Positions 7,885 through 55,605 of a stretch of DNA of 64,000 bases are shown in pieces. Source of the DNA: a virus. How positions within the stretch are numbered: the stretch's first letter is position 1; every line of letters begins with the position of its first letter. The stretch lies in the IMG/VR virus record IMGVR_UViG_3300042317_000390, positions 64,001 to 128,000 of that record, one strand, 5' to 3'. The position numbers and the translations under genes are program-made. The notes under the pieces were generated by a model. That model made no database searches. It was not told where the DNA came from and saw only the letters and a list, made by a program, of their open reading frames with translations.

Positions 7885-7907
7885 AGGGGGCATTAGCCCC
7901 CTTTTTT
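7885..7907 (+). terminator. Intrinsic terminator between convergent genes
   Basis: GGGGGC-atta-GCCCCC followed by a T-run. Confidence 0.8.
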
Positions 7908-9876
7908 ATGCACCCATGTGCTTTTTAATTTTCTTAGCTTCTTCCCAGTGATTGCCACCGATTAAAGATGCCCAATCTGGCCAACTAACATCAGCTGGAT
8001 GATTATAATTATATCCAGCCATATCTCCGATATATCCAGATTGACCGCCGTTGACTTGAATGTTATTTTGAGCAGGAGTTTCGTTAAATAAACTCTCTTG
8101 GAATGTTTCTTGATTAGCAGCAGATTGAACAGCAGTTTGTTTAACTATCTGACTATTCATTTCTGGTAAAGAAGTTCCACCTATTAATTGACCTGGACCA
8201 ATAGAAGGCATTAAGGCAGCTTGAGGCATAGGTGCGTTCATATTACCTAAAGCACTAGTTAGCATAGGTAAGAACGATCCTACTATTCCACCAAGACCAC
8301 CTGGCATAAAACTATTTAAAGCTCCTAATCCAATTTGCATAGGTAGATTAGATCCAGCAGGTTCCATTGGTCTAGAAATAGCAGTAGAACCAGATTCTGT
8401 TCTTTCAGCACTAGCAGAAGGCGGTGGAACAGTTTGTACTGTTGTCATTGGCGTTGAGCCGGGAGTTAACGTGGATTTATTATATGCTTCGCTATGTGCT
8501 TGATCGGGTGATGCTCCCATCAAACCACCGATAGCAGACGCACCACCTCTAATACCTTTACCGCCTATTTGAGCATGAATATGATTATCGTGATCTTTAA
8601 CTCTCCAAAGAACAGTATAACCAGCAGCTTGTAATTGTTTAGCTAACTTATCAAACTTTGGACCCCATACAGGATCTCTTGCTTCTACTATATTACCAGG
8701 AGCGTTAATATCCATAGCCATACCATCGTTATGCGCAGATCCAGGATGATGTTGCTCTGGATGAACGCCTCCGAAAGCTGGGTGCTCAGAAACTCTAATT
8801 CCCATACCTTGAAGAGCTTTTCCTAAAGCGACTAGATCGCCAGATGGTAAAGGAGAAGCGCCTTCCATTCTTTCTGAATCTTTACCAGAAGGAGTTACAG
8901 CAGCTGGTGTAGCATCAGATCTTGGAGTAGTAGCAGAAGCTGATTCTGATGGATTAGTAGAGGAACCAGCACTATACGATCTTTCAAATTTTGAAAGATA
9001 AGAACTTGGTGTTATATTATTTCTTTGTGCTTCTGCGGATATAGTATGTTTAGGACCAAGAAAGTGAGTTAATACGGCGTTTCTCAATCCTTCCTTTTTA
9101 ATTAGTTTTTGGAAGTAGTCATTAAATACCGCATCTTGAATTTCTGGTGGAGCATCTACTGCTCTTTTAAATTGAGTTCCAATACCAGCGCCAGCAGCTG
9201 CGCTTTGCCAAGTTGAGTCAATAAATTGATAAGCACCAGAAGCAGAACTGCCTGGGTTTTGTGCTTTATAACCGCCGCTACCTTTCGATTCAATCGATTT
9301 AATAGCATCGGCTGCGGCTTTCATATTAACGTTTTCTGGTCCAGACCCCCAATTAAAACTACTAGTATTAGAATCACCGCCGAGCATAGATGCGCCGCCT
9401 ACCACAGCACCGGCACCGATACCCATTTTAGTTAATTCCCAAAGACCGCTAGAAAGAGTACCAACACCAGAGGTAATTGCACCAAGTAATCCCTTTTCAC
9501 CTAGAGATTCTTTCATGTTCTCGTTTAGAGATTCGGTGCTATCGTTAAGGATAACGATGTTCTTTCCCATATCTCTAATAGAACCTAGAATGTTAGTTTC
9601 TACAGAGATAAGATCCTGCATGTAGACACCAAGTCTATCAATCTTTGACGACATTTCTTGAGTTTCAGATGCTACATCGTTTATAGAGTTTTCTAAATCA
9701 ACTACATCTTGTCTTTGGCTTTTAAATACAGTATAAATGTCTTTTACGACTCTACTGATATTAGCGTTTGACTGCATAGCAGCCTGACGGAATTCACCCA
9801 CGACTTGAGAAATTGAGAACTCCATAGAGTTTCTCATTTGATTTAGAATATAACTTAACTCTTCTGTGTCAGCCAT
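7906..9876 (-). CDS. Tape-measure/hub-like (gp29-position) virion protein with lysozyme-like and M15-like peptidase domains
   Basis: N-terminal helical coiled-coil. IKSIES...NPGSSASGAYQF..STW is a lysozyme-like/transglycosylase motif. H..GSAH..G.AMDI...H..HIH is a Zn peptidase M15/Hedgehog-like motif. Last gene of the tail operon. Confidence 0.7.
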   Translation of the reverse strand: MADTEELSYILNQMRNSMEFSISQVVGEFRQAAMQSNANISRVVKDIYTVFKSQRQDVVDLENSINDVASETQEMSSKIDRLGVYMQDLISVETNILGSIRDMGKNIVILNDSTESLNENMKESLGEKGLLGAITSGVGTLSSGLWELTKMGIGAGAVVGGASMLGGDSNTSSFNWGSGPENVNMKAAADAIKSIESKGSGGYKAQNPGSSASGAYQFIDSTWQSAAAGAGIGTQFKRAVDAPPEIQDAVFNDYFQKLIKKEGLRNAVLTHFLGPKHTISAEAQRNNITPSSYLSKFERSYSAGSSTNPSESASATTPRSDATPAAVTPSGKDSERMEGASPLPSGDLVALGKALQGMGIRVSEHPAFGGVHPEQHHPGSAHNDGMAMDINAPGNIVEARDPVWGPKFDKLAKQLQAAGYTVLWRVKDHDNHIHAQIGGKGIRGGASAIGGLMGASPDQAHSEAYNKSTLTPGSTPMTTVQTVPPPSASAERTESGSTAISRPMEPAGSNLPMQIGLGALNSFMPGGLGGIVGSFLPMLTSALGNMNAPMPQAALMPSIGPGQLIGGTSLPEMNSQIVKQTAVQSAANQETFQESLFNETPAQNNIQVNGGQSGYIGDMAGYNYNHPADVSWPDWASLIGGNHWEEAKKIKKHMGA

Positions 9877-9887
9877 GGTTTACCTTC

Positions 9888-10067
9888 TTATTTTTGTTTC
9901 TTGGCTTCTTCTACTTCCTTCAAATAATCAACTAACATCTGTACATAAATGTCTCTTTCGAATGGTATTAGCGCTTCAACTTCACTTATGGAATATTTAT
10001 GATGCTGAACCATTGAAAATATCGTTGAATAATAGTTAGACAACGATGTATGACTCAGCGCCAAGTA
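9888..10067 (-). CDS. 51: gp51-like segment (59 codons, not in ORF track), probably reached by -1 frameshift from the upstream gene
   Basis: YLALSHTSLSNYYSTIFSMVQHHKYSISEVEALIPFERDIYVQMLVDYLKEVEEAKKQK* matches the short gp51-type pattern NYY..F...QHHKYS..E.E...P.ERDIY. It has no ATG with an RBS ahead of the conserved part. Confidence 0.75.
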   Translation of the reverse strand, partial: YLALSHTSLSNYYSTIFSMVQHHKYSISEVEALIPFERDIYVQMLVDYLKEVEEAKKQK

Positions 10068-10765
10068 AAAAAATCATTTAACGAATTCAGAACGATCTTT
10101 CGTTCATTACCCAAAGAATTTTCATATGTGATAACGTATTCCATTTTAGGAACATTTAATAGAAACTTTTGAATCTGTTCGAATGCCTTGATATTAAGGT
10201 TTTCTATAAAATCATTAAGTTCTTGCTTCTTATAATCTTTACACTGATATACTTCATCTTCATAATAGATCGAATCAATACATCGAACGATTAATTCAAA
10301 CATATAATCCTTCTCTAAGGATAAGAAGTCTTTATCATCATATAGAGCAGCAGTTGGGTATTTCATAATGATTCCAGATTTTCCAGATAACTTGATGTTG
10401 TTATCGACATTCTCTGGATATACCATTTTAACATCATCTAGATTGATATCAAAATCATACTTCTTCTGATCTTCGTTATCTTTATATGTTACCTTGATCA
10501 CGTTATCTACCGATAAAGATCTCAGCTTCAAGAAGATGTATTCTAAATCAAATAGTGCCAGCTTATTAACATCTAAAGTTTTATCAAGAGAGCAGTTGTT
10601 GATAATCTGTTTAATAGCTGCTAGAATATCAGCAGTATTCTCGCTCTCTTTTGACATAAGCAACAGTTTTTCTTCTTTAACTAAAAATGGTCTAAATTGA
10701 AATTCCTTTTTCATCGATGGTATTTCAATTCTGTACATTGGATAGTCAATTTTCGGTAAAGCCAT
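10055..10765 (-). CDS. 26: Baseplate hub assembly protein (gp26/gp51-family as annotated in T4-like cyanophages)
   Basis: MALPKI..P.Y....PS....FRPFLVKEEK.LL, FDLEYIFL.LR..SV, C-terminal L.DFF. Confidence 0.85.
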   Translation of the reverse strand: MALPKIDYPMYRIEIPSMKKEFQFRPFLVKEEKLLLMSKESENTADILAAIKQIINNCSLDKTLDVNKLALFDLEYIFLKLRSLSVDNVIKVTYKDNEDQKKYDFDINLDDVKMVYPENVDNNIKLSGKSGIIMKYPTAALYDDKDFLSLEKDYMFELIVRCIDSIYYEDEVYQCKDYKKQELNDFIENLNIKAFEQIQKFLLNVPKMEYVITYENSLGNERKIVLNSLNDFFTWR

Positions 10766-10781
10766 ATTAAAACTCCATTAA

Positions 10782-11441
10782 TTAAGAACTTACAGTTTCC
10801 CTTTGTGTTCCTGTAAACATATTAGTTGGTTGTGGTCTAATAGTCTGCATACTTGAACCTTCGATAGAATACTCAGTGAATGCAATAGATACGTTGATCT
10901 TCATTAGATTGGTTGTATCAGCCCAAGATAAAGGAACTTCTCTAAGAGCCGTTGGAAAGGCTTCGAACAGATTTATCTTTTGAATGATATTACCAAACTG
11001 ATCGCAAATCATAATAACAATGGTTGAAGAGAATTGGTCTTTATATTCAGCTGTGTAGTTTGGAGCTTGGCCGTTAACACCATTATACTGAAATACTGCT
11101 CTTGTCCACTGATACCAATATTGCCAAAACTCGCAATAATGATCGCCTAGAATAGAGATGTTAATCTCTTGGAACTGTGCCGCTATAGGTTGCTTCTGGG
11201 TTGGACCAATACCGTATCTGTTAATATCAGCGGTCGATAATGAGATGCCAGGCGCTCTGACTTGATCGATACGGAAGCTCATATTTTGAGCTATGGAAGC
11301 AGTTGCTGTAGGATTGCCTTGATTGCTTAAATATGCGTTCGCAAGAACTGGTGGCGTTTGTACCATGACAACGAATGAGTTGTTATCAAGATAACCAAAG
11401 TCCCTGATATTTGTTGCGAATCTGTTTATATTAAAAGCCAT
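10782..11441 (-). CDS. 54: Tail tube initiator gp54-like (tube fold)
   Basis: MAFNIN.F start paralogous to gp19, and L.EAFP.....LSW....V.F motif. Confidence 0.7.
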   Translation of the reverse strand: MAFNINRFATNIRDFGYLDNNSFVVMVQTPPVLANAYLSNQGNPTATASIAQNMSFRIDQVRAPGISLSTADINRYGIGPTQKQPIAAQFQEINISILGDHYCEFWQYWYQWTRAVFQYNGVNGQAPNYTAEYKDQFSSTIVIMICDQFGNIIQKINLFEAFPTALREVPLSWADTTNLMKINVSIAFTEYSIEGSSMQTIRPQPTNMFTGTQRETVSS

Positions 11442-11962: not shown

Positions 11963-12412
11963 TTAAAACTTTAATCCGAGTTCGTGTTCTGTCATGATAA
12001 TAAATTCATAACCTCTATCTTTGCAGTATTCTCTGGCTGCTTTCCACTTTGCAGAGTTTACACCCCAGCGCATGACTTCTTTGATGTATTTATTAGATTT
12101 CTTCTTACTTTCTTGAATCACTGGTGGTTTTGTTTGACTGGCAGGTTTGACTTCAATTAAAATAGTCTTAGTCTTGTTATCAACTGTGTTTATTCTTGCA
12201 GTGAAATCAACAAAATATCTGTGGACTCTGTTGTCTACAGGCGAACGATATGGAATTATGGTTTCCTCTGAGGACCACCATATTACGTTAGGATCTGCAT
12301 CGAAACGATTCATAACCAATAATTCCCATCTTGAACGGTAAATTATGTTAGTAGGATCGCCTTTATACTTACTAGGATTTTTTGGTTTAAAAATCCCTTT
12401 ATAGGTAGCCAT
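11963..12412 (-). CDS. 4: Head completion nuclease gp4
   Basis: YKG.F.PKNP.KYKGD...I.YRS.WE, WSSEE..IPY, HRYF.DF, EVKP, N.AKW.AA. Confidence 0.95.
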   Translation of the reverse strand: MATYKGIFKPKNPSKYKGDPTNIIYRSRWELLVMNRFDADPNVIWWSSEETIIPYRSPVDNRVHRYFVDFTARINTVDNKTKTILIEVKPASQTKPPVIQESKKKSNKYIKEVMRWGVNSAKWKAAREYCKDRGYEFIIMTEHELGLKF

Positions 12413-55017: not shown

Positions 55018-55605
55018 ATGGAAGCTTTCGTTTATTGTTGGACGGATAAAAAAACAAATATGTTATATGTTGGTTCTCATAAAGGATCAACTGATGATGG
55101 ATATATTTGTTCCAGCAAGTATATGATGGAAGAGTATAACAAACGTCCTAAAGATTTTAGTAGACAGATTATCGCTGAAGGTGATTTGTCTGATATGAGA
55201 AAGTTTGAAACTAAAATACTTCAAGCTGTGAACGCCAGACTTGATGAACAGTTTTATAACATGCACAATAACAATGGTTGTTATATTTTAAAACGTCACA
55301 CAGAGTCAACAAAAAGAAAAATCAGCGAAAGCGAAAAGGGTAAAGTTGTATCCCAAAAATCAAGACTTAAAATGAAAAATAGTAAAATTGGTTTCAAAAA
55401 CAATAGATGGGGAACACCCCATAACGAAGAAACTAAAAGAAAAATGTCGTTATCGGCGCAAGGAAGAAAGTTCAAAGAAGAACATAAATATAAACTATCG
55501 CAAGCTAAATTAGGGAAAAGTTGGTTCCATAATCCTAACAATAACTCAAGCGGTTTATATTTTCCAGGAACGGAACCAGAAGGCTGGATTAAAGGAAGAA
55601 AATAA
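55018..55605 (+). mobile_element. Free-standing GIY-YIG homing endonuclease (Seg-like) with NUMOD3-type repeats
   Basis: FVY.W......YVGSHKG..DDGY..SS, FYN, HTE.TKRKIS / HNEETKRKMS repeats, GW.KGR end. Inserted between gp13 and gp14. Confidence 0.88.

Follow-up and report, generated by a model that had tools for sequence, protein, structure and literature searches.

We find that the gp26-like gene of an uncultured freshwater T4-like phage is likely decoded in two ways, in that a programmed −1 ribosomal frameshift close to its 3′ end would yield a chaperone pair resembling lambda G and GT. The locus lies on the minus strand of the window, by which we mean the whole stretch of viral DNA that was analysed, 64,000 nucleotides in length. 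The features to which we refer below are the following.

10782..11441, minus strand: tube-fold protein, 219 aa, directly upstream of the gp26-like gene (phrog_45 tail tube, 2.1e-20; PF23849)
10055..10765, minus strand: short product, TAC-N, gp26-like, 236 aa, zero frame (PF12322, phrog_150, AlphaFold model)
10067..10073, minus strand: slippery heptamer and candidate −1 shift site, in phase as T_TTT_TTT (T7 run 10073-10067)
10000..10063, minus strand: candidate stimulatory stem-loop, 10-bp main stem 10059-10050 / 10013-10004
9888..10073, minus strand: gp51-like extension, FF followed by 59 residues and the stop codon (phrog_634, 1.5e-24)
join(10765..10067, 10067..9888), minus strand: long product, predicted 292 aa
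7906..9876, minus strand: tape-measure-like protein, 656 aa, at the gp29 position (phrog_13339 tail length tape measure, 2.7e-14)

Read as an open reading frame of the window, the gp26-like gene occupies positions 10765-10055, encodes 236 aa and ends with AAT GAT TTT TTT ACT TGG CGC TGA, so that the T7 run is found three codons 5′ of the zero-frame stop (TGA, 10057-10055). In the −1 frame a TGA directly abuts the run on its 5′ side, and from the run onward this frame reads FF-YLALSHTSLSNYY...KKQK, with FF-YLALSHTS... at its beginning, 59 residues after FF and a stop codon at 9890-9888. The predicted products are a short form of 236 aa and a long form of 233+59 = 292 aa, and the gap from the extension stop to the ATG at 9876 of the 656-aa gene measures 11 nt. 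An earlier inspection of the letters, which we call the sequence-only reading, had described exactly this anatomy, namely an in-frame heptamer three codons before the stop, a 59-codon −1 frame and an 11-nt gap, and we were able to reproduce all of its coordinates. The same is true for the lambda V-G-T-H-like gene order that it had proposed, with the tube-fold gene at 11441-10782, the chaperone gene at 10765-10055 and the tape-measure-like gene at 9876-7906. Short and long forms are encoded here at a single locus with a −1 extension and not by two separate genes as in T4.

The assignments of the individual genes rest on profile matches and synteny. The gp26-like protein matches PF12322 T4_baseplate with 194.9 bits (cut-off 24.5) and phrog_150 at 1e-63. 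The gp51-like −1 peptide matches phrog_634, "baseplate hub assembly catalyst", at 1.5e-24 and, in addition, reaches into the final 50 positions of the profile of phrog_150. The tube-fold protein gives 29.2 bits against PF23849 Phage_TTP_2 (cut-off 27), and in phiM12, AS-szw and LG08 the syntenic gene carries a tail tube or tube initiator annotation; the gene occupies the position of lambda V and of the T4 gp54/gp19-like tube initiator. On the other side, a downstream ORF of 496-767 aa begins −8 to +8 nt from the extension stop in 26 of 26 readable loci. The tape-measure-like proteins of the relatives have a mean column identity of 15% and lengths of 496-767 aa, and we presume that this protein is the client of the chaperone. 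The order tube-fold, gp26-like, gp51-like extension, tape-measure-like is retained in the relatives. Other T4-type genes in the window are gp2, gp4, gp48, gp53, gp13-15, terminase and sheath.

Some further observations concern these genes. The tape-measure-like protein (7906-9876, minus strand) contains a transglycosylase-like stretch (PF06737, 23 bits, under the cut-off of 27) and has weak matches to phrog_4067 (1e-4) and phrog_10475 endolysin (0.0075). The gp4-like head completion protein (11963-12412, minus strand) matches the Pfam family Tn7_TnsA-like_N, PF08722, an endonuclease-type fold, at 1.2e-20. Between the gp13-like and gp14-like neck genes we find an ORF (55018-55605, plus strand) with a match to the homing endonuclease family phrog_314 (5.5e-22).

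The best GenBank protein match of the phage comes from a cyanophage and is 42% identical, and a megablast search of the locus against GenBank phages gave nothing beyond one 56-nt match. The stretch 9700-10900 is present almost word for word in lake-water and freshwater metagenomes of 24 studies (2016-2024), and the phage seems to occur widely and to persist in lakes. Homopolymers are error-prone, and the sequence-only reading had itself named an assembly error in the length of the T run as a danger to its proposal. In contigs of four runs from four studies (2016-2024), the T7 run is present without insertion or deletion. The view that the run length is such an error, with only one real ORF, or that the extension is a dead remnant, can draw on the database proteins P0025, P0060 and P0008, which read through the junction. 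Against it stand, besides the four assemblies, the same frame relation in 80 independent metagenomic contigs and in cultured phages, and the clear protein-level conservation of the extension, which speaks against decay. We give artefact or decay practically no chance of being right. In total, four database proteins (P0008, P0025, P0031 and P0060) read the gp26-like part into the gp51-like tail in one frame; they are probably indel errors or rare fused variants. P0025 was considered as a natural fusion and rejected: it is an outlier, because its nearest DNA relatives, at 90-98% identity, have the −1 arrangement.

The comparison of frame and heptamer was carried out on 80 IMG/VR loci with relatives at 35-75% identity, which comprise 62 distinct junctions. 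All 79 usable loci (of 80) carry the gp51-like segment in the −1 frame, and a second clade has this arrangement in 59 of 60 further distinct junctions. One locus, L112, had come up as a frame-0 exception; we take this as a mis-scored HSP, and the heptamer is visible in its printed junction. The T run, T6 to T8 in length, begins at codon position 3 in 80 of 80 loci, window included, and gives T_TTT_TTN. As a check, the sequence-only reading had proposed to look in T4-like phages for a conserved slippery heptamer at the FF codons and for a second ORF that never leaves the −1 frame; both are seen, with the phase locked at 80/80 loci and the frame constant at 79/79. Since the arrangement is present in all 80 relatives examined, we set a chance origin aside.

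Over the 80 loci the run is T7 in 68, T6 in 11 and T8 in one, and among the 62 distinct junctions the heptamer is TTTTTTT (51), TTTTTTC (10) or TTTTTTA (1). The codon before the run is GAT in 40 of these junctions, followed by AGT (10), AAT (7), ACT (3), GGT (1) and TCT (1). It ends in T throughout, across six codons and five amino acids, and this compares with a background use of T-ending codons of 0.29-0.74 in these genes. Likewise, the first Phe codon is TTT in 62 of 62 junctions versus a background of 0.70. The zero-frame stop follows 0-3 codons 3′ of the run, which, together with the −1 stop that abuts the run in many loci, confines the shift to 7-16 nt. Because the wobble T is kept at the 5′ side, while the 3′ end can be T, C or A, the run is anchored 5′ at a synonymous site and loose at its 3′ end, and this is the pattern needed if the tRNAs in the P and A sites are to re-pair in tandem. 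As a protein motif FF is conserved too, even in T4 gp26, and the conservation of the run is therefore in part conservation at the protein level.

The RNA 3′ of the heptamer is structured in addition. In the window, the main stem of the candidate stem-loop begins 7 nt after the heptamer; the 75 nt that follow the heptamer have an MFE of −17.1 kcal/mol (z −3.64), and 0 of 200 dinucleotide shuffles were as stable. Over the 62 junctions the mean z-score is −2.5 versus −0.4 to −0.7 in three control windows of the same genes, with mononucleotide shuffles used for junctions and controls. RNAalifold over the 62 junctions gave no consensus structure; the hairpins vary between clades. In 22 members of the window's clade, 82% of the cells of the main stem are paired; covariation is modest, with one compensatory pair and a score that was reached by 16 of 500 shuffles, the structure itself being derived from the window sequence. 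For a role of the 3′ stem-loop as a stimulator these data are suggestive, not proof.

A different process, in which RNA polymerase adds one U and a U8 fraction of the mRNA codes for the fusion in one frame, would lead to the same protein. Such transcriptional slippage fits with the fact that the signal is invariably a T homopolymer (T7 in 68 loci, T8 in one) and no other heptamer type, and a single added U yields exactly the observed frame. Efficient polymerase slippage takes place on runs of about 9 or more. The eleven loci with T6 only (TTTTTTC) are shorter. In all 80 of 80 loci the 5′ end of the run is fixed at a wobble position, and the 3′ end is variable; such an invariant, 5′-anchored phase is predicted by tandem tRNA re-pairing and not by a pure length requirement, and hence argues against the polymerase. 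The enrichment of structure on the 3′ side is a feature of ribosomal stimulators as well. We consider transcriptional slippage improbable and continue with the ribosomal frameshift.

If the extension is reached by a frameshift, it should have no start of its own, and the sequence-only reading had indeed claimed that no SD-led start precedes its conserved region. This was confirmed: among the loci compared, we found no Shine-Dalgarno sequence before any −1 start candidate and no conserved start position for the −1 ORF. The start candidates of the window, TTG at +9, TTG at +30 and ATG at +60 from the run, are without a Shine-Dalgarno match, and in four loci (L040, L053, L055 and L068) no ATG, GTG or TTG was found up to +75 nt. 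Additionally, conservation of the −1 peptide begins right at the heptamer (FFYLxLSHxxLxNYY...QHHKYS...PFERD in 50 aligned relatives), and all candidate start codons have conserved residues on their 5′ side. Searched with a profile, 1.84 billion representatives yielded 2061 protein matches; among the best 150 of these, 140 are short ORFs, and their called starts are spread over profile positions 1 to 22. Such scattered starts are how gene callers behave where a real start is missing.

These data bear on the assumption of two independent proteins, with the gp51-like ORF translated either by reinitiation once gp26 has terminated or from a start that is weak or non-canonical. The records of S-RIM44 and phiM12, which annotate a separate ORF of ~55-60 aa, speak for it, as do the TTG codons of the window at +9 and +30 and the Vibrio phage K476, which has a TAATG overlap start and no heptamer. 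The absence of Shine-Dalgarno sequences and of a conserved start, with four loci lacking ATG, GTG and TTG up to +75 nt, speaks against it, and so do the conserved residues 5′ of all candidate starts and the scatter of the annotated ones. Two proteins would also leave unexplained why the wobble T is constrained and why this constraint is lost in lineages that have a separate long gene 51, and T4 gp51 is contiguous over the junction (see below). For these reasons we regard independent initiation as very improbable, even more so than polymerase slippage, and the frameshift as the preferred explanation.

Annotation of the extension differs between phages. The short "gp51" ORFs (~55-60 aa) of S-RIM44 and phiM12 carry arbitrary starts. 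In AS-szw (MF498773; L084:2100-2273), the −1 extension after AGT TTT TTC is unannotated and the gap to the next gene is empty. The gp26-like gene of K476 (L083:2180-2405) ends ACG CTT TTT GCG TAA, without an in-phase T6; its next ORF has its own ATG at the TAATG overlap and a faint resemblance to the extension (E 0.012). K476 may follow a third strategy by translational coupling, or the small gene may be unrelated.

A comparison with T4 itself, of which the sequence-only reading had said that it is not known to use such a frameshift, provided a further line of evidence. The T4 genes 26 and 51 are divergently transcribed, so that no frameshift could join them, and the FF codons of gene 26 read GAG TTC TTT with no T run. 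The profile of the predicted fusion aligns T4 gp51 (249 aa) unbroken across the junction (profile positions 140-277, E 4e-11), with gp51 residues ~205-245 aligned to the extension. T4 gp26 (208 aa) matches the same profile at 5e-17 and terminates with ...KEFF plus 3 residues; gp26 and gp51 are weak paralogues of each other (E 2e-6). As gp51 is contiguous over the junction and gp26 ends three residues after FF, T4 codes the short and long forms as two genes. T4 gp51 is then the natural in-frame equivalent of the predicted fusion, which agrees with the earlier suggestion that the short "gp51" of such phages is in reality the T extension of a G/GT pair of 236 and 292 aa.

This correspondence extends to other cultured phages (hosts: DP45 Acinetobacter, B614 and AS-szw Aeromonas, Moon Citrobacter, LPCS28 Cronobacter, LG08 Rhizobium). 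The run is missing in seven lineages with a separate gene 51, namely T4, Moon, KIT01, DP45, RB49-like, Acj9 and B614, where this gene measures ~250 aa and is divergently transcribed. The in-phase heptamer and the −1 extension are retained in LPCS28, LG08, AS-szw, phiM12 and cyanophage S-RIM44, all of them without an annotated long gene 51 within the stretch fetched. Every sampled lineage with a separate gene 51 has lost the run, and this comparison argues cleanly for the run as a recoding signal. Judged from these genomes, the T run appears to follow the need for recoding rather than the FF motif. Citrobacter phage Moon (NC_027331, 116606-118244) carries, as a separate matter, a two-piece joined CDS annotated "GT-like fusion protein; T4 gp28-like". 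This CDS overlaps gp27, and the annotators of the record thereby put a G/GT-type frameshift at genes 27/28 and not at 26/51. In T4, genes 27 and 28 overlap by 56 nt (L081:5349-5404).

We also compared the fold of the short form with tail assembly chaperones (TACs), a comparison that the sequence-only reading had named as a check. The AlphaFold model of the short form has a pLDDT of 88. A VIA-align search of the model against 48,161 chains placed 3fgx (an uncharacterised Bacillus protein, Z 8.4), 2ob9 (the HK97 tail assembly chaperone, Z 6.7) and 3klu (YqbN, Z 6.5) on ranks 1-3, all of them on residues 1-95, with values within the tool's grey zone, a range that is common for unrelated models and can be fortuitous. 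Phage p2 ORF12 (3d8l) stands lower in the list with Z 3.0. Foldseek of the model against the PDB gave no match at E <= 0.001, the sequence-profile search of the PDB returned no phage protein and no TAC, and hhalign of the family alignment against lambda gpG gave a probability of 0.3% and hence no sequence-profile link. TAC families are too divergent for a sequence-profile comparison to rule out membership. Two of the top three matches, 2ob9 and 3klu, are tail assembly chaperones; the resemblance of the modelled N-terminal domain to known TACs is supportive, not decisive.

From all this we infer slippage by the ribosome rather than by RNA polymerase, its efficiency, the chaperone function and the partners as follows. 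The gp26-like gene would be a tail (hub/tube) assembly chaperone gene that is decoded in two ways. Most ribosomes would stop at the TGA 10057-10055 and release the 236-aa short form, and a minority would slip back by one base with two Phe-tRNAs on T_TTT_TTT (10073-10067). The slipped tRNAs would re-pair on TTT TTT, read TAC as the next codon and add in all 59 more codons, which gives the 292-aa long form with its gp51-like tail. The stem-loop 7 nt downstream probably pauses the ribosome and boosts the slip frequency. By analogy with lambda G/GT and T4 gp26/gp51, both forms may act jointly on the tape-measure-like protein; they would initiate tube assembly on the hub, in a ratio set by the slip frequency.

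The concept has precedents. According to PMC12846349, which cites Vladimirov, Gautam and Davidson 2022, T4-like phages have poly-T sequences in their TAC-N genes that serve as frameshift signals, and PMC10274946, citing the same work, mentions that some T4-like phages have one short and one long fused gene and no frameshifting. Papers citing Vladimirov et al. (Virology 2022, 566:9-15) also describe gp26/gp51 as the chaperones of T4-like phages. Going by this account in the citing papers, the concept is already published. Of the central proposal that a T4-like phage has a frameshifted G/GT pair, the reading itself is supported by our comparison, and its novelty is not, as far as the citing papers convey the content of Vladimirov et al. 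2022. A search of full-text literature from 2021 onward for gp51 as a frameshifted tail assembly chaperone gave no result, and we found in the literature no experimental demonstration of the frameshift in any T4-like phage. The correlation of run loss with a separate gene 51 and the enrichment of RNA structure on the 3′ side were worked out in the present analysis. As far as the citing papers describe them, the T4-like TAC genes of Vladimirov et al. 2022 belong to the same gene family, gp26/gp51, at the same position, and nothing essential differs. The window differs from them in representing an uncultured freshwater lineage with at most 42% identity to GenBank phage proteins.

The value of the present case lies, since the concept is not new, in its confirmation in a distant freshwater lineage. 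The T4-like phages would be brought under the near-universal rule of tail-chaperone frameshifting, and T4 gp51 would be identified as the long chaperone form. For annotation, a joined, frameshifted CDS is due in hundreds of records of cyanophages and other T4-like phages, which at present give a short "gp51" ORF or nothing at all. One may speculate, tentatively and with the odds rather against it, that clade-specific stem-loops set a lineage-specific ratio of short to long form, that the U_UUU_UUN frameshift is ancestral to the T4 superfamily, and that gene duplication replaced it in the Tevenvirinae, the Twarogvirinae and the Krischvirus group, where two promoters would govern the ratio. If this were true, the superfamily would serve as a natural experiment on the need of tail chaperones for a fixed ratio.

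Finally, we compare the locus with the systems to which it is most closely related in sequence, fold or organisation. Leiman et al. 2010 (PMC3004832) place gp26 and gp51 of T4 among the hub assembly chaperones; gp51 does not occur in the virion and is listed there as a hub assembly protein that is essential but has no known function. Both proteins are homologous to the window proteins, with T4 gp51 as the long form including the C-terminal tail. The difference is in the expression strategy, in that T4 uses separate, divergent paralogous genes. On the HK97 gp10 TAC (2ob9) and B. subtilis YqbN (3klu), residues 1-90 of the model superpose, at a sequence identity of 11-12%. An additional C-terminal domain of the gp26-like protein (residues ~95-230) has no clear match and is absent from 2ob9 and 3klu.

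The conserved −1 frameshift of tail assembly chaperone genes, with lambda G/GT as its example, was reportedly described by Levin et al. in 1993 and by Xu, Hendrix and Duda in 2004, and Xu et al. are said to have found in 2014 that the G part binds the tape measure and the T part the tube protein. As it is G and not T that binds the tape measure, the extension should not be presumed to be the tape-measure contact. The window shares with lambda the order of tube, chaperone, −1 extension and tape measure (lambda V-G-T-H), an X_XXY_YYZ heptamer that is in phase and lies a few codons ahead of the zero-frame stop, and two products, here predicted, with a common N-terminus. It differs in the heptamer, which is U_UUU_UUU here and G_GGA_AAG in lambda, and in the short form, which has 236 aa and a second domain here compared with 140 aa in lambda. 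Moreover, the phage of the window is contractile-tailed and has a complex baseplate hub.
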